A stretch of 64,000 nucleotides of DNA from Haliotis cracherodii (Eukaryota): contig NW_027266275.1 in NCBI RefSeq assembly GCF_022045235.1, positions 81,716,001 to 81,780,000 of the forward strand, written 5' to 3'. Below, one piece after another: positions 1 to 24,168 of this stretch. Within the stretch, counting starts at the first letter, position 1; the number at the start of each line of letters is the position of its first letter. The notes beneath the pieces are model-generated. The model ran no database searches. It was not told the DNA's origin and worked only from the letters and a program-made list of their open reading frames with translations. The position numbers and the translations under genes are program-made.

Positions 1-1486
1 CTGCAATGGTCATACAAATATACACAGACAGCTGCTTGGCCAGGTCGTGGTAGCTGTCAACAGCAGATGTACAAGTCTTGGCCTGCAATGGTCATACAAA
101 TATACACAGACAGCTGCTTGGCCAGGTCGTGGTAGCTGTCAACAGCAGATGTACAAGTCTTGGCCTGCAATGGTCATACAAATATACACAGACAGCTGCT
201 TGGCCAGGTCGTGGTAGCTGTCAACAGTGGATGTACAAGTCTGGTCATACAAATATACACAGACAGCTGCTTGGCCAGGTCGTGGTAGCTGTCAACAGCA
301 GATGTACAAGTCTGGTCATACAAATATACAAAGATAGCTGCTTGGCCAGGTCGTGGTAGCTGTCAACAGCAGATGTACAAGTCTGGTCATACAAATATAC
401 ACAGACAGCTGCATGGCCAGGTCGTGGTAGCTGCCAACAGCAGATGTACAAGTCTGGTCATACAAATATACACAGACAGCTGCTTGGCCAGGTCGTGGTA
501 GCTGTCAAAAGCAGATGTTCAAGTCTGGTCATACAAATATACAGAGACAGCTGCTTGGCCAGGTCATGGTAGCTGTCAACAGTGGATGTACAAGTCTGGT
601 CATACAAATATACACAGACAGCTGCTTGGCCAGGTCGTGGTAGCTGTCAACAGCAGATGTACAAGTCTGGTCATACAAATATACACAGACAGCTGCTTGG
701 CCAGGTCATGGTAGCTGTCAACAGTGGATGTACAAGTCTGGTCATACAAATATACACAGACAGCTGCTTGGCCAGGTCATGGTAGCTGTCAACAGTGGAT
801 GTACAAGTCTGGTCATACAAATATACACAGACAGCTGCTTGGCCAGGTCGTGGTAGCTGTCAACAGCAGATGTACAAGTCTGGTCATACAAATATACACA
901 GACAGCTGCTTGGCCAGGTCATGGTAGCTGTAAACAGTGGATGTACAAGTCTGGTCATACAAATATACACAGACAGCTGCTTGGCCAGGTTGTGGTAGCT
1001 GTCAACAGTGGATGTACAAGTCTGGTCATACAAATATACACAGACAGCTGCTTGGCCAGGTCATGGTAGCTGTAAACAGTGGATGTACAAGTCTGGTCAT
1101 ACAAATATACACAGACAGCTGCTTGGCCAGGTCATGGTAGCTGTAAACAGTGGATATACAAGTCTGGTCATACAAATATACATAGACAGCTGCTTGGCCA
1201 GGTCATGGTAGCTGTCAACAGCAGATGTACAAGTCTGGTCATACAAATATACACAGACAGCTGCTTGGCCAGGTCATGGTAGCTGTCAACAGTGGATGTA
1301 CAAGTCTGGTCATACAAATATACACAGACAGCTGCATGGCCAGGTCGTGGTAGCTGTCAACAGCAGATGTACAAGTCTGGTCATACAAATATACACAGAC
1401 AGCTGCTTGGCCAGGTCGTGGTAGCTGTCAACAGCAGATGTACAAGTCTGGTCATACAAATATACATAGACAGCTGCTTGGCCAGA
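1..1486 (-). repeat. Minisatellite (71-bp unit; 82-bp units at left) derived from the NPRL3 exon-5 acceptor and first codons
   Basis: About 20 copies. Minus strand reads ttgcag|GCCAAGACTTGTACATCTGCTGTTGACAGCTACCACGACCTGGCCAAGCAGCTG = AKTCTSAVDSYHDLAKQL, the expected NPRL3 continuation after VVFALN. Confidence 0.9.
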
Positions 1487-1707
1487 TGTTTGGGGCTACA
1501 ATTGTCATACAAATTTACAGACAAGGACAGTTTGTCCCACCAATCCAATTGCAGCATTTACTGACTGGCAGCGGACACCAAGGAGGACAGTTTTAAGGAA
1601 GGACTCGGCTGGGGAAGTTTGGCACGCCTAGAACGTTGGATGTCCATTATGTTATTATGAATGAGAAATGAAAGTATTTTGAAAGTATGGTTACAATTCT
1701 GACTTAC

Positions 1708-1891
1708 ATTAAGTGCAAACACGACATTGACGGTGATGATCATGTGACCAGCTGACGATGGCTTGCTATCCACATGGTACATCTTCATCGGAAAGCCGAT
1801 GAAGCGAATTTCATCGATCTTCACATTGAACTTCTTTTTGCAGAGGGAAGATTTCACAGCTAACAAATTTGCCAGAATCTTGTCTGAAAAC
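1708..1891 (-). CDS. NPRL3: NPRL3 coding exon 4
   Basis: ctaag| FSDKILANLLAVKSSLCKKKFNVKIDEIRFIGFP...NVVFALN |gtaagt. Confidence 0.88.
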
Positions 1892-4800
1892 CTTAGAAGA
1901 GAGAATATTAGTAAGAGTGATTAAGGTTGTAATGCTGCTTTGAACAGTATTTCAGGGTTAGATCACTGCGGGTCATGTGATGTGAGGAAACACCAAACTG
2001 ATGTTGGACATAGAAGGAGACGGGTATGGTGCTGATATACAATGATATACCTAGAAACATAATCAGAGTCATCTTAACCCTCGATCACAGGTTTCTGGCA
2101 TGCCCAAGGGAAGTAACTCTGCATACCAAACTGTGGCACCTTAGGCCTGTTACACGACTGGGCCACCATGTAAAAGATGTTGATACTTTGTGATGTCATC
2201 AATTATCAAGAAGGTACCTTGTGCATGATAACTCGTATATGATTTGCCAGATTCACTATGGATACTTATTTCATCAAACAAATATGTCAACAGCAACTGT
2301 AACATTTTCAGGGCATTGTACAGTCAGCGGCAACAAAAACAAAGTCAAATATGTATTTTCCCTTGTGTTATGATGCACTTACTTGTCCGAAATATTAATC
2401 TTTTTTTCTTTATGTTCTTATTTCCCCAACAAATAAGTATATAGTCAACAGATACGTTTTAACATTCACATGTGCCTCAGATTGTCACATACAATTTTCA
2501 GTACATTATAAACATCACCATAATGTCACATCATGCACACATTTCACCATACCAACAGAACCCTAGAGTTATAGTTTGTGCATTGATGTAGTGGTTGTAC
2601 AGACATTATGTTTTCCCTATCATATTGAGCACTGTACACGTGTGTTTGTGAATGTCAGCTACTTACCAGTCCAAGTTTGCGTTCCTGCCTGAAGGGATCA
2701 CAGTACTCCTGTAACACAGCATCAGAATTAATCCTGTTAAGGATTCCACGTGACCCATGAACCAGTTAGGAACATAGAGTTTAATGCTGGTGCAATGTTA
2801 GTATCCTTCCGTTAAGCCATGACCAAGTGCTATTGTAAGGAAGATAAAATAGACCAGGCTACCAACCTGGCTATCCATGTGTTGACTGTACTAATATTCC
2901 GGGGGGGGCGGAAATACACCATTCAACCATCTTCCGGGGCACCATTGTGAAATGAGGTCTTTGTGCATTTTTTGGTCCGGACAAACAATAGCATATGGGT
3001 TTATGAAACAACAGTATGTTGGTAAACAAAAAATAAACCCTTATTGGCACTGCCTTGACGGAGCGCTGCTGAGCAAAACCAAGAATGCTCAACAGTACGT
3101 GTGTCAAGCTGATAGTGCCCAAGAAAGGTATTGAAGTGGCGCCACATAGCAGCCGAGCAGACTTCTTTGATGAGCAACGATGCAGCAAAGCCTTAAAAGG
3201 TCGCCATCCCTCTAACAGAATGGCCTTCTAAACCAGCTGGAATGGCCACGCCCTTCGCCATGTGAAACAGCATCAGATTTATTCATGTTAATGATTCGCC
3301 ATGCATGGAAGAATCAATGTGAAACTGTCACTAACTATTTGTCCCCCTTAAATTAATTATTGGCTCAGATCATCTTCCCGAGGCAAGGGAGTTAACTGAT
3401 TATAAAAGTCCAGTTTCCACACTTGCTGAACTAGGCTGGAATTATATTTTGGCTGGATGAATGAGTCTATGCATCATCCAATCAAAATCACTTAACGAAA
3501 GTGACATCCACTTTGTGACTGCTGTGCAGATTTCTGCTGATTGCAGGATTTGCAAAGCTAAGATTTGGGTGCCACGTTTACAGTCTGAACTTTTACAGTC
3601 AATTAAGTCCCTTGCCTCGGGAAGATGGGCTCAGATATCCACAGGACAAGTAGAGTTTACTCAAATTTGCAAGATCTTTTTCATATACTTTATCTATTCT
3701 TTCAAATGATTATGAGCTTAGAGATTACATTTGGAATAGCTGACACTCTAAAATTGTCAATGACATATAAAAGTGAAAAGAAACCTGACAAGCAAATTCC
3801 CAATTATACGCTTTTGAAATCCCTTTAGTGCCCATTGAATCAAGCTGGGGATGAAGAGATAATGTTGTACCTGGACATCAGGGCAATGGTACCTTAAAAA
3901 CCAGGAGGGATTGTATCATAAGTAATTTAAAGGACTTTATCCTGTTGCACTAAGGTCAGCTAATACATATACATGTGCACTCACTTGCTCCGATGATGAT
4001 CCTCAGCAACTTTGGATCGTGTAGCATAAGGATTTCGACCATACACTGAAAGATAATCATGTTCTACGTATAACCTGTAAGAAGGAAATATACACACTGT
4101 GAAAGTTAAAACAAATGTACATTTGTGTCTTGGAAAATGATTACCAATTCAGGTTACACTGTTGTAAATATTACATAAAATATGATGAGTACCGTATTTG
4201 CCATAATAAGCACACAGGAAACTTCGAAAATTGACAAATGGGGGTGCTTATTAAACCGGTTAAAACCTTAAACAAGCAAAATATAATTTTAGACTCTGAA
4301 CAGTAGTAAGCATACTTATTTCAAGCATTTATGAAACCAAAACATTTTCAATAATAGTTCATGATAGTTACTAGGCAATTATATCATTCCTACTTCTGTA
4401 AACAAAATCTGTAATATGCACAAGAAAATACTGACTAGCTGTCATGTAAATCTTCAATTATAGTCGTATAAATTTTCGATTATAGCACATGTTGGTATGC
4501 TAATAAATATTACTTACAAACTGGGTTCCTATAGGAGCAAAGCACTTAATACAGTGAATATGGTAATCATAAATAGGGTGTGGTATCCTATCCTGCACAA
4601 TGACTTGAACACCCTGTCATGCTTGTAGCAGCATACTATATAATTACTGCATTAACCAACCTGCGAAATACGCTACAGTCGGAAAGCACACGTTAAATCT
4701 TCTATATCAGTCAGTCAACCTGCTCCAAATGAAGTACATGGAATAGGTAATTTTTATTAAGCATCAACCCTTCAAAACTTTTGGTGCATCAAAGACACTA

Positions 4801-9700: not shown

Positions 9701-12700
9701 TTTAATGACTTGACAAATATGTAAGTATTTGAACCGTATTTATCTTGTAAATAAGCCATGTGTTAACAGAGGTCAGGTTAATAACTGGACTGCACATCTG
9801 TTAATATTAAGGGGTCATACGATACATGATGGACATGCACATCCAGTTGAGCTCAGGTCCAAAACGATTTGTAGGATATGTTGGGTGTACCTGTTTATCT
9901 ATTGCCAGTGGTGCAAGTTAAGCATGACGCCCAAGGACCCTTGTCATAACCCTAATGTTTAAAGTTAAAATTTAGGGGTCCCTAGACAGAGAAAGTTTAG
10001 CAGAAAGCCTCAAGGTACCCCGTTAATTTTGAACACTGAGAAGGAGAGATGTCTGTTGATGTTTAACTGCTATGATATGTCGGTAGTTACAAGACAGCCA
10101 GGACCTGGTGTCTGTCTCACCATACTTGCTGCTGCTTGGGAGGCTGCTGGTTATTTCTCCGGCATATGGATTTCACCTTCTCCACAAACACGGTAAACTT
10201 CTCAATCAGTGTCACACTTATTGCACTAACAAACACGGTAAACTTCTCAATCAGTGTCACTTATTGCACTAACGACTTATATTTGCATAAAACCCTGTTG
10301 TAAATAGTTCCAATCCAAGCTCTATATTTGTCATATTTCAAGAACTTTAGTTGTGAATGATGTTATCAAAGGCCATTGGTGATAGAAAGAATTTTACTAC
10401 TGTGTATGGGTTTTGTTTCAGAATCTCTTCTTCTCCTCGTACTAAGGTTACTGAGTCAAACGTCAGATGAAAGCTGTTTGTGTTCTGTAATCTACATCTT
10501 CATCCATCTGTTGGATGACTCTCTGCAATCAGACGTGTCCCTTGATGTGAGGTGTTGTGTCAATCAGGTGCTGGTGTCTCTCCTCACTTGTGCTGAATCT
10601 CTGGACCTGAGAGTCAATCTACTGGGTGAGTTAGGTCCACAATCAGGTATGTCCCTTGATGTGAGGTGTAGTGTCAATCAGGTGCTGGTGTCTCTCCTCA
10701 CTTGTGCTAAATCTCTGGACCTGAGAGTCAATCTACTGGGTGAGTTAGGCCCACAGTTGCTAATGTATCGCTATAATATCTTGTAATTATGCACAACTGA
10801 AAATGCAACAAAATTAACATCTATAGAAAAGACTGTTAAAGGCTTCTATAGGACTAATAGAAATAACGAAATGTTTTGAAAAATATTAATATATATCATT
10901 CAGGATCTTTGGTAGCCGCCTCAATGAGTTTCACAATCTCTGCTTCAGCGCTTCTCAAAAACATCCTGAAGCACACAGATGAAAACACTGTGAAGCTGTT
11001 GATGGCACCCAACCCAGACAACAAGTATTTGGTGATGGGACTCAAGAAGATGTTGATCACCAAGCAGGAGGTGCTGCAGACGGCCTCTGCTCACTGCGTG
11101 ACGGTGCTGATGTCCTGCTCCAAGGATGAAAGTACCGTCACTCAGATCCTGGAGAGTGACCTAGCCGGTGAGTGAGTGAGTTACTGATGCTCTAGAGATG
11201 AAAGTACTGTCACTCAGATCCTGGAGAGTGACCTAGCCAGTGAGTGACGCTCTACAGATGAAGGTACCGTCACTCAGATCCTGGAGAGTGACCTAGCTGG
11301 TGAGTGAGTGAGTGAGTGACGCTCTACAGATGAAGGTACCGTCACTCAGATCCTGGAGAGTGACCTAGCTGGTGAGTGAGTGTGTGAGTGATGCTCTAGA
11401 GATGAAAGTACAGTCACTCAGATCCTGGAGAGTGACCTGGCCCGTGAGTGAGTGAGTGAGTGAGTGAGTGAGTGAATGATGCTCTAGAGATGAAAGTACT
11501 GTCACTCAGATCCTGGAGAGTGACTTAGCTGGTGAGTGAGTGAGTGAGTGAGTGATGCTCTAGAGATGAAAGTACTGTCACTCAGATCCTGGAGAGTGAC
11601 CTAGCTGGTGAGTGAGTGAGTGAGTGATGCTCTAGAGATGAAAGTACAGTCACTCAGATCCTGGAGAGTGACCTAGCTGGTGAGTGAGTGAGTGAGTGAT
11701 GCTCTAGGGATGAAAGTACAGTCACTCATATCCTGGAGAGTGACCTAGCTGGTGTGTGAGTTAGTGAGTGAGTGATGCTCTAGAGATGAAAGTACAGTAA
11801 CTCAGAACCTGGAGAGTGACCTAGCCGGTGAGTGAGTGAGTGATTCTCTAGAGATGAAAGTACAGTCACTCAGATCCTGGAGAGTGACCTAGCTGGTGAG
11901 TGAGTGAGTGAGTGAGTGATGCTCTAGAGATGAAAGTACCGTCACTCAGATCCTGGAGAGTGACCTGGCCCGTGAGTGAGTGAGTGAGTGAGTGAGTGAT
12001 GCTCTAGAGATGAAAGTACTGTCACTCAGATCCTGGAGAGTGACCTAGCTGATGAGTGAGTTAGTGAGTGAGTGAGTGATGCTCTAGAGATGAAAGTACA
12101 GTAACTCAGATCCTGGAGAGTGACCTAGCCGGTGAGTGAGTGAGTGATGCTCTAGAGATGAAAGTACAGTCACTCAGATCCTGGAGAGTGACCTAGCTGG
12201 TGAGTGAGTGAGTGAGTGATGCTCTACAGATGAAAGTACCGTCACTCAGATCCTGGAGAGTGACTTGGCCCGAGAGTGAGTGAGTGAGTGAGTGATGCTC
12301 TAGAGATGAAAGTACTGTCACTCAGATCCTGGAGAGTGACCTAGCTGGTGAGTGAGTGAGTGAGTGAGTGATGCTCTACAGATGAAAGTACCGTCACTCA
12401 GATCCTGGAGAGTGACTTGGCCCGAGAGTGAGTGAGTGAGTGAGTGATGCTCTAGAGATGAAAGTACTGTCACTCAGATCCTGGAGAGTGACTTAGCTGG
12501 TGAGTGAGTGAGTGAGTGAGTGAGTGATGCTCTAGAGATGAAAGTACTGTCACTCAGATCCTGGAGAGTGACCTAGCTGGTGAGTGAGTGAGTGAGTGAT
12601 GCTCTAGGGATGAAAGTACTGTCACTCAGATCCTGGAGAGTGACCTAGCTGGTGAGTGAGTGACGCTCTACAGATGAAAGTACTGTCACTCAGATCCTGG

Positions 12701-15700
12701 AGAGTGACCTAGCTGGTGAGTGAGTGAGTGAGTGAGTGATAGATGCTCTAGAGATAAAGGTACTGTCACTCATATCCTGGAGAGTGATCTAGCTGGTGAG
12801 TGAGTGAGTGATGCTCTAGAGATGAAAGTACTGTCACTCAGATCCTGGAGAGTGACCTAGCTGGTGAGTGAGTAAGTGATGCTCTAGAGATGAAAGTACT
12901 GTCACTCAGATCCTGGAGAGTGACCTAGCTGGTGAGTGATGCTCTAGAGATGAAAGTACAGTCACTCAGATCCTGGAGAGTGACCTAGCCGGTGAGTGAG
13001 TGAGTGAGTGAGTGATAGATGCTCTAGAGATAAAGGTACTGTCACTCATATCCTGGAGAGTGATCTAGCTGGTGAGTGAGTGAGTGATGCTCTAGAGATG
13101 AAGGTACTGTCACTCAGATCCTGGAGAGTGACCTAGCTGGTGAGTGAGTGAGTGATGCTCTAGAGATGAAAGTACAGTCACTCAGATCCTGGAGAGTGAC
13201 TTAGCTGGTGAGTGAGTGAGTGATGCTCTAAAGATGAAAGTACTGTCACTCAGATACTGGAGAGTGACCTAGCTGGTGAGTGAGTGAGTGAGTGAGTGAT
13301 GCTCTAGGGATGAAATTACCGTCACTCAGATCCTGGAGAGTGACCTGGCCCGTGAGTGAGTGAGTGAGTGAGTGATGCTCTAGAGATGAAAGTACTGTCA
13401 CTCAGATCCTGGAGAGTGACTTAGCTGGTGAGTGAGTGAGTGATGCTCTAGAGATGAAAGTACTGTCACTCAGATCCTGGAGAGTGACCTAGCTGGTGAG
13501 TGAGTGAGTGAGTGAGTGATGCTCTAGAGATGAAAGTACAGTCACTCAGATCCTGGAGAGTGACCTAGCTGGTGAGTGAGTGAGTGAGTGATGCTCTAGG
13601 GATGAAAGTACTGTCACTCAGATCCTGGAGAGTGACCTAGCTGGTGAGTGAGTGACGCTCTACAGATGAAAGTACTGTCACTCAGATCCTGGAGAGTGAC
13701 CTAGCTGGTGAGTGAGTGAGTGAGTGAGTGATAGATGCTCTAGAGATAAAGGTACTGTCACTCATATCCTGGAGAGTGATCTAGCTGGTGAGTGAGTGAG
13801 TGATGCTCTAGAGATGAAGGTACTGTCACTCAGATCCTGGAGAGTGACCTAGCTGGTGAGTGAGTGAGTGATGCTCTAGAGATGAAAGTACTGTCACTCA
13901 GATCCTGGAGAGTGACCTAGCTGGTGAGTGATGCTCTAGAGATGAAAGTACAGTCACTCAGATCCTGGAGAGTGACCTAGCCGGTGAGTGAGTGAGTGAG
14001 TGATGCTCTAGAGATGAAAGTACTGTCACTCAGATCCTGGAGAGTGACCTGACCAGTGAGTGAGTGAGTGAGTGATGCTCTAGAGATGAAAGTCCAGTCA
14101 CTCAGATCCTGGAGAGTGACCTAGCTGGTGAGTGAGTTAGTGAGTGAGTGAGTGATGCTCTAGAGATGAAAGTACAGTCACTCAGATCCTGGAGAGTGAC
14201 CTAGCCGGTGAGTGAGTTAGTGAGTGAGTGATCGATGCTCTAGAGATGAAAGTACTGTCACTCAGATCCTGGAGAGTGACCTGACCAGTGAGTGAGTGAG
14301 TGAGTGATGCTCTAGAGATGAAAGTCCAGTCACTCAGATCCTGGAGAGTGACCTAGCTGGTGAGTGAGTTAGTGAGTGAGTGAGTGATGCTCTAGAGATG
14401 AAAGTACAGTCACTCAGATCCTGGAGAGTGACCTAGCTGGTGAGTGAGTTAGTGAGTGAGTGATGCTCTAGAGATGAAGGTACTGTCACTCATATCCTGG
14501 AGAGTGATCTAGCTGGTGAGTGAGTGAGTGATGCTCTATAGATGAAGGTACTGTCACTCAGATCCTGGAGAGTGACCTAGCTGATGAGTGAGTGAGTGAG
14601 TGATCGATGCTCTAGAGATAAAGGTACTGTAACTCATATCCTGGAGAGTGATCTAGCTGGTGAGTGAGTGAGTGATGCTCTATAGATGAAGGTACTGTCA
14701 CTCAGATCCTGGAGAGTGACCTAGCTGGTGAGTGAGTGAGTGAGTGATGCTCTAGAGATGAAAGTACAGTCACTCAGATCCTGGAGAGTGACCTAGCCGG
14801 TGAGTGAGTGAGTGATGCTCTAGAGATGACAGTACTGTCACTCAGATCCTGGAGAGTGACCTGGCCAGTGAGTGAGTGAGTGAGTGATGCTCTAGAGATG
14901 AAAGTACAGTCACTCATATCCTGGAGAGTGACCTAGCTGGTGAGTGAGTTAGTGAGTGAGTGAGTGATGCTCTAGAGATGAAAGTACAGTAACTCAGATC
15001 CTGGAGAGTGACCTGACCAGTGAGTGAGTGAGTGAGTGATGCTCTAGAGATGAAAGTACTGTCACTCAGATCCTGGAGAGTGACCTAGCTGGTGAGTGAG
15101 TGAGTGAGTGAGTGATGCTCTAGGGATGAAATTACCGTCACTCAGATCCTGGAGAGTGACCTGGCCCGTGAGTGAGTGAGTGAGTGAGTGATGCTCTAGA
15201 GATGAAAGTACTGTCACTCAGATCCTGGAGAGTGACTTAGCTGGTGAGTGAGTGAGTGATGCTCTAGAGATGAAAGTACTGTCACTCAGATCCTGGAGAG
15301 TGACCTAGCTGGTGAGTGAGTGAGTGAGTGAGTGATGCTCTAGAGATGAAAGTACAGTCACTCAGATCCTGGAGAGTGACCTAGCTGGTGAGTGAGTGAG
15401 TGAGTGATGCTCTAGGGATGAAAGTACTGTCACTCAGATCCTGGAGAGTGACCTAGCTGGTGTGTGAGTGAGTGACGCTCTACAGATGAAAGTACCATCA
15501 CTCAGATCCTGGAGAGTGACCTAGCTGGTGAGTGAGTGAGTGAGTGAGTGATAGATGCTCTAGAGATAAAGGTACTGTCACTCATATCCTGGAGAGTGAT
15601 CTAGCTGGTGAGTGAGTGAGTGATGCTCTAGAGATGAAGGTACTGTCACTCAGATCCTGGAGAGTGACCTAGCTGGTGAGTGAGTGAGTGATGCTCTAGA

Positions 15701-18700
15701 GATGAAAGTACTGTCACTCAGATCCTGGAGAGTGACCTAGCTGGTGAGTGATGCTCTAGAGATGAAAGTACAGTCACTCAGATCCTGGAGAGTGACCTAG
15801 CCGGTGAGTGAGTGAGTGAGTGATGCTCTAGAGATGAAGGTACTGTCACTCAGATCCTGGAGAGTGACCTGACCAGTGAGTGAGTGAGTGAGTGATGCTC
15901 TAGAGATGAAAGTCCAGTCACTCAGATCCTGGAGAGTGACCTAGCTGGTGAGTGAGTTAGTGAGTGAGTGAGTGATGCTCTAGAGATGAAAGTACAGTCA
16001 CTCAGATCCTGGAGAGTGACCTAGCCGGTGAGTGAGTTAGTGAGTGAGTGAGTGATGCTCTAGAGATGAAAGTACTGTCACTCAGATCCTGGAGAGTGAC
16101 CTGACCAGTGAGTGAGTGAGTGAGTGATGCTCTAGAGATGAAAGTCCAGTCACTCAGATCCTGGAGAGTGACCTAGCTGGTGAGTGAGTTAGTGAGTGAG
16201 TGATGCTCTAGAGATGAAAGTACAGTCACTCAGATCCTGGAGAGTGATCTAGCTGGTGAGTGAGTTAGTGAGTGAGTGATGCTCTAGAGATGAAAGTACC
16301 ATCACTCAGAACCTGGAGAGTGACCTAGCCGGTGAGTGAGTGATCGATGCTCTAGAGATGAAGGTACTGTCACTCAGATCCTGGAGAGTGACCTAGCTGG
16401 TGAGTGAGTGAGTGAGTGAGTGATGCTCTAGAGATGAAAGTACAGTAACTCAGATCCTGGAGAGTGACCTAGCTGGTGAGTGAGTGAGTGAGTGATGCTC
16501 TAGAGATGAAAGTACAGTAACTCAGATCCTGGAGAGTGACCTAGCTGGTGAGTGAGTTAGTGAGTGAGTGATGCTCTAGAGATGAAAGTACAGTCACTCA
16601 GATCCTGGAGAGTGACCTAGCTGGTGAGTGAGTTAGTGAGTGAGTGATGCTCTAGAGATGAAAGTACCATCACTCAGAACCTGGAGAGTGACCTAGCCGG
16701 TAAGTGAGTGATCGATGCTCTAGAGATGAAGGTACTGTCACTCAGATCCTGGAGAGTGACCTAGCTGGTGAGTGAGTGAGTGAGTGATGCTCTAGAGATG
16801 AAAGTACAGTAACTCAGATCCTGGAGAGTGACCTAGCCGGTGAGTGAGTGAGGTAGAACACAGTATCTCAGGAACAGGAAGTGCATCCAAATGTGATACC
16901 ATGTGGCATATTGTCACTGCAATCTCCTTCCTCCTTCAAGACACAAGAGGTCAAGCCACGGGGTGGGATTGTTTAGTGTGACATCATAGACTCAGAATGC
17001 CAACCGCTAAAAAACACAAAATATGTGTAAGAATGGGCAGGGCCAAGTGTTCTAGGTTTAGGTGCATAATTTATTACTTTGATTTATTTGATTAAAAATG
17101 ATGCAAGTTTTGAATAAATTCATATTTTTGAACTTATCCCTCCACATCAGTAGGACCTTATAGATAAGGGGAATACTCTGATTCCCCCTGGTTGAATGGT
17201 ATTATGTATAGAAAAGTGCTCAACTTGTTGCCTTTTTAAAAACCCTTTATTAAATGTAGAAGGAAAGTCCAAAGTGGCATGACTTAGTTGTAGACATTTG
17301 CCACTTTGATCACACCAACGGTTGTAGCCATAACCTGAGAATGATGGTGATGTACATGAACCCGATCCTGCTGCTGTTGCTGTTGTTTCTGTTGCTGGTG
17401 AGGTGTTCCCATAGATTACAGTGTGGGTAACAGTATAACAAAATTTCTTAGTTTTTTAGTTTTGAAGACACATGAGTCATATTTGTTATTTCTTTCTGTT
17501 GTATTTTGGGAAGCCTTTGATGATATAAGGCATAGATGTGTAGGAGTCATGCACCGTATTGTGATGTATGGAATTTTTCTTTTCAGAATTTCTCTTTGAG
17601 TCTTTGCATTCACAAAGTGGTCCTCAACTGGAGTAAGAATCATTCAGAATGGTTTCCCTTTTTTATCATTATTTGTGGGTTTTGTTTGTTCTATTTGTAA
17701 ACATGGTGAAGCGTTTGTGTTGACATCTTACTAATAGTTCAATGCTCTCGTCCTGGCCATATTTCTATGATATGTATATTCCTAGGTTTCATTTATATTT
17801 TCAGATTTAATGTTTATTTATAGTTCAGTTGTTAGCAGTCTTTGAATTCTTTACATTTGAGCCAACATCAGAAAACTTAATCATACTGCAGTGATAGAAA
17901 CTAACAGTTTTAGTCCACTAGTCCAAATAATGATAAAAATCCTTAAAAAGGGCAAATTCTGCTAGTCCTTATGATACTGTAACTATTGGGCAGATTGGCA
18001 GGGACTAAGGGACTAGTGCCAATTTCTAACTCTGTACTACATACACATTGCTTTACAGTGTTCCCTCGCTATTGCGCTCTTCAATATAGCACTAACTCGG
18101 TTATAGCGCACTATAAAGCATGGCTCCCAAAAGTTACTTGCATTTTAAATAAACTCATGTTTTCCAATGACACGATGTTTTCCCCATCTCAAAAACATTA
18201 TCAGCTTTTCTTTTGTTGGTCATATACCCCCTACAACTCCATCTCAGTTAAACCTCCGATCATCGATTATTTGGACCCCAAAGGTAGCGTTGTAGTGAGG
18301 GATCACTGTATCTGGTAGTTATCTCCAACTTTCCCCCTGTTGGGGCCCAGGTTCTAACAGGTCACCAGCACTCTAATTCCTGAAGTAAGAGGGGACTTTA
18401 TTGGACTGGGTGGTTGCACACGCTGACTTCCGTGATTGATCCGGGGAGGAGGGGGGGCTTCAGCAACCCATGCTTGTCGTAAGAGGCGACTAACGGGATC
18501 GGGTGGTCAGGCTCACCGACTTCCATGATTTCTTGTTGTCATACCCAAACAGCTTGGGAGAGTGCTCATAACATCCACGACTGGTTTGTCTGGCCTTGAC
18601 TACAGGTCACCAGGATATACATGGAATATGGCTGAATGTGCTTTTAAGCAACACTGACCAACTCACTCACTCTTATATTCAACATGTCCTTAACAATTAA

Positions 18701-21700: not shown

Positions 21701-24168
21701 GCTCTAACAGCTGCTAGGCCTCTTGTCAGGTAACACTGTGAGTCTTTTTTTCAGTTGGGGTAAATGCTGTCCTTTCAAATGTTATTATTTATATGTGGGG
21801 AACATCAGTTAATTATCATGATTGTGTCATCTAGCAAGCATATTGTTTGCAGGGAATACCCATCAGTATAGACTTGATCGAATACTTCATAAAGGTTCTC
21901 CCTAGGTTGTAATCTCACAACTGATTGTAAGACTGCCCTTAGTATGACACATTAGTATGACACATTAGTATGGCACATTAGTGACACATTAGTATGACAC
22001 ATTAGTATGTCACATTAGTACGGCTCACATGTATGGTACATTGGTATGTCACATTAGTATGTCACAGTAGTATGGCTCATATGTATGGTACATTGGTATG
22101 ACACATTAGTATGACACATTAGTATGACACATTAGTATGACACATTGGTATGACACATTGGTATGTCACATTAGTATGACACATTAGTATGGTTGTGGTT
22201 GTAATCTCTCTCTCTCTGATTGTAAGGTTGTAGTCCCCCCGGTGATTGTAAGGTTGTAGTCTTCCATGTAGACTAGCATATAGTCCAGGATATGGATAAA
22301 GTTGATTAAAATAATTCTATCAAGGAACCCTCAAATGTTAAGAGCCTTGAGATCTCTTAAATCAGAGCTGAACGGGGATGAGTTTAGGCTTCTGGTGCTG
22401 AGGAAGGGGATTAGAATGGAATGGGGGTGATCGTTTTATCCTTTAAGGTCTGTAAGAGAGAGACTACCTCCCAAGTGAATGACACTGAATGTGTAGCCTC
22501 GTCACTGATGTTAGTTCCCTGTGTCTGCAGCAAGCAGTACCTGCCGTGGGTGTATCGATGTGAGGTCGTAGAGGACCTGCTGAAGGTGTAGTCTCGTCAC
22601 TGATGTTAGTTCCCTGTGTCTGCAGCAAGCAGTACCTGCCGTGGGTGTATCGATGTGAGGTCGTAGAGGACCTGCTGAAGGTTCTAGTCTCGTCACTGAT
22701 GTTAGTTCCCTGTGTCTGCAGCAAGCAGTACCTGCCGTGGGTGTATCGATGTGAGGTCGTAGAGGACCTGCTGAAGGTGGCCTGCTGTCAGATGACGGAC
22801 CTCCACACCTCGCTGTGTCATGGCAGACACACACAGACACGGATGGGCCAACAGGTGGACTGGCAGAACCTTCTGGTTGCCTTCACAGATCTCATCACTG
22901 TATGCTGTAGGTGGGTAGAGATATTCTTTATCCTATGATGAAATGAGACAAGTGAAAATGACAACTGAAAATATATAGTAAATAGAATGTTTGTTTTTAT
23001 CATTTTGTCTGTTTTATTTATTATCCTAAAAGCTGTGGTTCATCTCCAACACATTGTCTTCTTTTTTGCACTTGAGGGAAGCCTTGCCCTCAACATTAAA
23101 CTGCAAAATCATCAACACTTGCAACAGTCACGTTTTTCTCACTTAGTGACTGAAAGAATCACTGTATAAAACTTCCAACTCAAGTCACGATATCACAATG
23201 TATCTTTCTGAATGCACTTGGTCCCATTGGACTAGGTTTGTGCATCACAATGGGGAGTTCCTTATTTTGCACCATACTGACCAAAAAAATAACTAATAAC
23301 AAAAGGAGAAATATTTTTTGCCATTAGTAACTTCATGACAACCAAAAATGCATGTTGAAAATAAGTGACATGTGACAAGTGTAAGTGTTTTCAAACATGT
23401 CCTTCCATCCAACAACCGACTACCGGTATCTGTCTGCATGTTTCAGAGTGTACGGGGAGAGTGTACTCAGGTCCTCCAGTGAGATGGAGGAGAGACAGTG
23501 GATGAATGTGGAGGGCACTCTCTCGCTCCTGGTGTCAGCTGCAGAGAGACATCTAGCACCATACATACAGGTGAGACAGATGCTCTACCCACTGCAGTCT
23601 GCGAGTTCAGCCACGAGTTTAGACTAATGCTTAGTTTCCGAATATATATAATTTTGATCAAAACAAGCAGCTACCTTTAAACTGAAAAAGAGCCCTGAAC
23701 CTGTGAAATATCTAGACTTTCTTTATTTAGAGCTATAGCATGACAGCAAGAGAATAATAATTTTCTGTGTGACAGACTCCAATTAGTTTGATGACAGTCT
23801 TGTCATTTTTATCTTCTGTCTAGGAAGCTTGACTGATAACGAGCAGTTGGGTAGCCTAGTTGTTAAAGCGTTTGCTCGTTCGCTCGGGTTTTATTCCCGA
23901 CATGGGTACAATGTGTGAAACCAATATCTGGTGTCCCCCACCATGATTTTGCAGGAATATTGCTAAAAGTGGCGTAAAACCACGCTCACTCACTCACTCA
24001 CCTGGTTACTGTTCTAACAGCAGCACTAAGATCTACTAAAAGTAAAGACAAGGTTAGCTACTTAACTTAAATGTTGTTGCACAGACTACCACTGTCTATC
24101 AGCACAAGTATGTAGACACTGTGTGGAGTTGGTGTCATGAAATGGGGTTTAATCTTGTGTTCAAGATT

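Follow-up and report, generated by a model that had tools for sequence, protein, structure and literature searches.

The first 1,524 nt of the analysed window (64,000 nt of Haliotis cracherodii DNA, G000:C12:81716001-81780000; positions are those of the window unless another stretch is named) hold a minus-strand minisatellite whose unit joins the 22-nt end of intron 4 to the first 60 nt of coding exon 5 of NPRL3. It is very probably an intronic minisatellite, likely neutral and spliced out whole, with the spliceosome likely using the last acceptor only; neutrality and removal as a whole would follow from this choice of site, since the last acceptor is the one that adjoins the complete exon. 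A preliminary description, made from the sequence alone, had read the array as a multiplied NPRL3 exon start, which was borne out by the anatomy of the units and by the match to the protein record P0001. Its further proposal, that loss of the acceptor was what allowed the unit to expand, is not supported as necessary, since two other arrays of the same region kept most of their splice signals.

Results

P0001 is labelled GATOR1 complex protein NPRL3-like, Haliotis cracherodii. It contains the Pfam domains PF03666 (NPR3, E 6.4e-41) and PF24064 (HTH_NPRL3, E 8.7e-20) and matches human NPRL3 (chain 6ces_M) with E 7.7e-137. By the domain content and human homology of this predicted protein, the host gene is NPRL3, a GATOR1 subunit. 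P0001 was reproduced letter for letter by a 14-exon GT-AG model that includes a join of position 1708 to position 0, and the exon 5 translation (51 residues) matched it at 100%. The array lies in intron 4, before coding exon 5. That exon had been placed at or left of position 1 and starts at position 0: the AG at 1-2 is followed in the adjacent stretch (L003) by a 154-nt exon with a GT donor at its end. The exon opens with AKTCTSAV, in agreement with the predicted start, and continues to HEERRCQYL, the HEE.R..YL segment that the preliminary description had expected to find there. The exon 4/5 junction is the same, free of any insertion, in proteins labelled H. rufescens, H. rubra, H. asinina and Gigantopelta. 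The features of the locus were as follows.

1 to 2, minus strand: live 3' splice-site AG of NPRL3 intron 4 (adjacent sequence, X1 contig, gene model, acceptor matrix)
3 to 82, minus strand: full 82-bp copy, with the intron-end part leading to the live acceptor (hand splitting, alignment)
83 to 164, minus strand: full 82-bp copy made of the 22-nt intron end (AG at 83-84) and exon nt 1-60, with no difference from the live exon start and acceptor (hand splitting, alignment)
165 to 1448, minus strand: 18 truncated copies (exon nt 6-60) at 71-bp spacing (TRF, hand splitting, matrix, alignment)
1449 to 1495, minus strand: degenerate outermost unit, an internally deleted exon start with intron tail (alignment)
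1496 to 1524, minus strand: decayed intron-end copy, TTGTAG for TTGCAG (shuffle score 34; matrix 4.0 bits)
1708 to 1891, minus strand: NPRL3 coding exon 4, 184 nt, GT donor at 1707-1706 (14-exon model; X1, X7 and X14 contigs)
0 to -153 (L003:8000-7847), minus strand, just outside the window: coding exon 5, 154 nt (P0001 model)

NPRL3 (minus strand) and a MEI1-like gene (plus strand) are divergent; their mapped coding parts, at window 6056 and from 10500 onward, lie about 4.5 kb apart. MEI1-like records in relatives are fragments of 365-910 aa.

TRF reported the array with a period of 71, 18.5 copies and a score of 2343 at 171-1485. A genome search with the array unit gave 20 matches in G000, all 20 at the NPRL3 locus (one candidate region scored). 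Three intact TTGCAG acceptors at 82-bp spacing (AG at 1-2, 83-84 and 165-166), one real and two extra, were confirmed as first described, and the copies without acceptor, put at about 18, were counted as 18 (starts 1448, 1377 ... 312, 241). Each of these lacks 11 nt, namely the acceptor and the first five bases of the exon. The deletion creates a new CAG at every 71-bp junction, so the 71-bp units are not free of AG; each truncated copy is preceded by this weak CAG, and the final one runs to the intact acceptor at 165-166. The peptide TCTSAVDSYHDLAKQL, which had been assigned to each unit, was found exactly in both full copies and in 6 of the 18 truncated ones; in the other 12 it carries amino-acid changes, one of them a stop. 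C-to-T change at a CpG was seen in 8 of 20 copies. On this sequence record of missense changes, one stop and CpG decay, the copies appear to drift like non-coding DNA. Coding use of the copies was rejected on account of the stops and missense changes. Intron gain by duplication was rejected as well, as no donor within the unit yields a usable extra exon under the P0001 model.

Interior units are homogenised: the 17 complete 71-bp units differ on average by 3.2 of 71 sites in pairwise comparison, and four of them equal the live sequence. Divergence is greatest in the outermost unit, in which a large internal part is deleted and the acceptor has decayed. This fourth acceptor copy, at 1524-1496, lies beyond the range 1-1486 of the preliminary description. 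It gave a local score of 34, against a top of 28 among 2000 shuffles (0/2000 reached 34), and differs from the live 30-nt intron end by 3 mismatches and a 2-nt gap. Intron 4 probably had its 3' end at 1496-1524 originally.

Acceptor strength was scored with a matrix built from 27 local sites (13 from NPRL3 and 14 predicted for MEI1-like; 3 of 17 attempted joins were left out). The live site and its two copies scored 7.6 bits and the decayed site 4.0 bits. The CAG created by the deletion reached 1.0-1.6 bits, which exceeds just 4% of real acceptors, and was rejected as a strong acceptor. The reported loss of the acceptor stands as a weakening of the site (1.0-1.6 against 7.6 bits). A further acceptor-like AG in the exon-derived part of the 71-bp units scored 5.2-6.2 bits (two copies scored). 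The live intron 4 acceptor itself has a modest pyrimidine tract. Among the 91 AGs of intron 4, only the real one gives the full-length protein; the others lead to a stop or a frameshift. Use of the acceptors 82 or 164 nt upstream (AG at 83 and 165) leads to a stop after 35 codons, in line with the frame shift foreseen for the 82-nt copy.

The contigs from X1, X7 and X14 behave as spliced RNA, with exons 3 and 4 joined. The junction from the donor at 1708, proposed earlier as a check, was found in a 1067-nt contig of X1, the one informative contig among four RNA-like runs (X1, X7, X14 and X22). Bases 292-474 of this contig lie on exon 4 and bases 474-627 on exon 5, joining 1708 to 0; at the acceptor, the loose end of the contig corresponds to the end of exon 4, and nothing is inserted. 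The run comes from a related organism (label A) other than the species of the window, and its exon 5 differs at 3 of 154 nt. On exon 4, the X14 contig stops 17 nt and the X7 contig 48 nt into the 60 nt common to all three acceptors, and neither can separate them. Minor use of the 82-bp acceptors would be invisible in such contigs, because they drop rare variants. For the same reason, the lack of contigs over L003:8001-8082 in X1 and X14, and over the intact acceptor in X18, does not count as evidence. X22, the run labelled with the species of the window, gave no contig at the locus, which speaks neither for nor against.

Arrays at splice junctions were also seen elsewhere in both genes. In NPRL3, an acceptor-spanning array of 50-76-bp units precedes exon 9 (L004:5147-6964, window ~-12853 to -11036, minus strand). 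AG is present in 26 of its 28 extra acceptor copies; the seven closest to the exon reach 8.3-10.1 bits, compared with 8.3 bits at the real site. The MEI1-like gene has a donor-spanning array at 11125-16852 (plus strand), in which the end of an exon and GTGAGT are repeated about 70-75 times; GT is kept in 66 of 70 matched units. As both arrays keep AG or GT in most units, acceptor loss is not required for expansion. A 95-bp acceptor and exon start is triplicated in the same gene at 22485-22779 (plus strand), with all AGs intact and the last copy leading to the full exon; at 10535-10755 (plus strand) there is a 114-bp coding-like duplication that includes a possible donor GTGAGT. Four more arrays have one boundary 3-14 nt away from a splice junction but do not span it (window ~-14177, -14915, -22489 and 44029). 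The exon-14 array among these four includes a second acceptor-end copy about 70 nt upstream, and the last codons and stop of NPRL3 belong to a 28-bp unit repeated about four times into the 3' UTR (L005:5268-5381, window ~-22732 to -22619, minus strand).

Of the seven intronic arrays of NPRL3, five either cross a junction or stop no more than 15 nt short of one (expected 1.0); P was 0.006 at 5 nt, ~0.001 at 15 nt and 0.04 at 100 nt, in a post hoc test of one gene in which the limits of two arrays were set by hand. Junction-spanning arrays as delimited by TRF showed no clear excess in NPRL3 (1/7, expected 0.69; 2/7 by hand, TRF having clipped the exon-9 array) and were not above chance in MEI1-like (2/12, expected 0.52, P 0.09).

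Exon nt 54 is A in the exons of X1, X14 and X18 and G in the exon of this genome; in the arrays it is G, in 19 of 20 copies here and in the X18 array unit. From these letters, nt 54 would fit array-to-exon conversion, and just as well a later change that the X1, X14 and X18 organisms have in common. It is possible, though doubtful, that abalone intronic minisatellites arise preferentially at splice junctions, where they may trade sequence with the coding exon. If true, a mutational process linked to exon edges would be able to rewrite coding DNA, and an excess at edges that held genome-wide would bear on the origin of minisatellites and on tandem duplication as a route to intron gain or sliding.

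Discussion

TGTCTG is present about 30 nt before the acceptor and again at exon nt 53-58, and is likely the breakpoint homology of the duplication, to judge by position. The array would have started as an 82-bp tandem duplication between these two microhomologies (intron ~-30; exon nt 53-58), which would have left the original intron end outermost, where it could decay, and made the working acceptor a copy. An 11-nt deletion in one copy would then have produced the 71-bp unit, which slippage or unequal crossing-over of the ordinary kind would have multiplied. The pair of 82-bp copies next to the exon may be young, or may have been kept homogenised with it. Part of this history can be placed in time with X18, a DNA-like run of organism label C, whose introns differ by ~3% in mismatches. 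One of its contigs, 101 nt long, consists precisely of a single 71-bp unit and 30 nt of overlap, and lacks the same 11 nt, so the 71-bp array is likely older than the split from label C. Depth was 41.9 for the unit contig and 6.5 for the exon contig, which suggests several copies, though it gives no copy number.

Exon definition and nonsense-mediated decay are textbook filters of splicing, and we infer that both apply here. The downstream donor would pair with whichever acceptor lies closest. On the rare occasions when an upstream site was used, a premature stop would result, and nonsense-mediated decay would remove the product.

It could be argued that selection against competing acceptors capped the 82-bp unit and left only the acceptor-deleted 71-bp unit free to expand. 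There are indeed 18 deleted against 2 intact extra copies; the intact copies score like the live site, the new CAG stands above only 4% of real acceptors, and the outer, original acceptor has decayed. The modest pyrimidine tract might also make this acceptor more sensitive than others. We nevertheless consider this explanation unlikely. The extra copies before exon 9 retain AG in 26 of 28 cases, with strengths at or above that of the real site (8.3-10.1 against 8.3 bits) in the seven nearest the exon, and the MEI1-like donor units retain GT in 66 of 70. Lancelet mirages, too, often keep AG or GT, with no splicing effect reported in the portions of PMC3087553 and PMC3902484 used here, and one deletion followed by drift would account equally well for the counts. 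A mild advantage of the acceptor-deleted unit may still have existed.

A regulatory role, in which the upstream intact acceptors form an alternative-splicing and nonsense-mediated decay device that tunes NPRL3/GATOR1 dose with copy number as the dial, is highly improbable. The X1 contig of a related organism runs unbroken across the proximal junction, and comparable arrays are frequent here in unrelated genes. The two perfect extra acceptors, each leading to a stop after 35 codons, would suit such a device, as would the presence of the 71-bp unit under a second organism label (X18), but what persists in X18 is the acceptor-deleted unit. An assembly artefact is hardly credible as the source of the array or of its two identical 82-bp copies. 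Both 82-bp copies are identical to the exon start and are known from one assembly; yet the 71-bp copies vary among themselves, with an average of 3.2 differing sites, and the unit with the same 11-nt deletion was recovered independently in X18. The exon-edge array in NPRL3 is real and, by itself, ordinary, likely one more tolerated case of a known kind.

The kind in question is the mirage, a descriptive class of exon-intron boundary minisatellites rather than a homologous family. In the part of PMC3087553 that describes it, the mirage of the lancelet globin gene BflGb6 consists of tandem duplications of an intron 3' end and the 5' part of an exon. AG or GT is retained in many of its copies, though not in every one, and splicing is not apparently affected; the cluster evolves in concert, with divergent boundary units left out of homogenisation. 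Mirage units are given there as 10-160 bp. PGBD5, Adh and troponin C show the same pattern as BflGb6 in the corresponding part of PMC3902484. The NPRL3 array has a real exon-intron boundary within its unit, about 20 copies of 71/82 bp arranged head to tail, splice signals that are partly retained (2 intact, 18 deleted with a weak CAG, 1 decayed), and a homogenised interior with a divergent boundary unit. It resembles BflGb6, as far as the cited part of PMC3087553 describes it, in that an intron 3' end and exon start are copied, signals are partly kept and the edge is divergent. It differs from that account in its gastropod host, in unit size (71/82 bp against 150-160 bp in BflGb6), in copy number (about 20 against 3-6) and in the dominance of an acceptor-less length variant.

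Two human cases are similar on the portions of the reports consulted. In CBS c.844_845ins68 (PMC7490669) an intron end and exon start are likewise duplicated, and splicing goes to the downstream one of the two acceptors and removes the upstream exon start; that case is a single 68-bp duplication tested in human cells, whereas NPRL3 contains a multi-copy minisatellite. The 37-bp VNTR of F7 IVS7 (PMC1557585) is also a boundary-spanning minisatellite, and its repeated pseudo-sites are described as silent although functional. It lies on the donor side, with the first copy used; the NPRL3 array lies on the acceptor side, with the last copy used. A literature search on Haliotis intronic minisatellites and splicing returned no matching title, which does not imply absence from print.

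The locus offers a natural experiment on 3' splice-site choice, with identical acceptors 82 nt apart of which apparently only the last is used, and the second NPRL3 array, with its 26 intact extra AGs, adds to this experiment. Exon-edge arrays can also mislead gene annotation.

A genome search with window 1500-2200 gave matches only to a dispersed repeat. This short element, at 2076-2144, had very deep contig cover in all four runs compared with the window, and its flanking letters look tRNA-like, presumably those of a SINE-like repeat.
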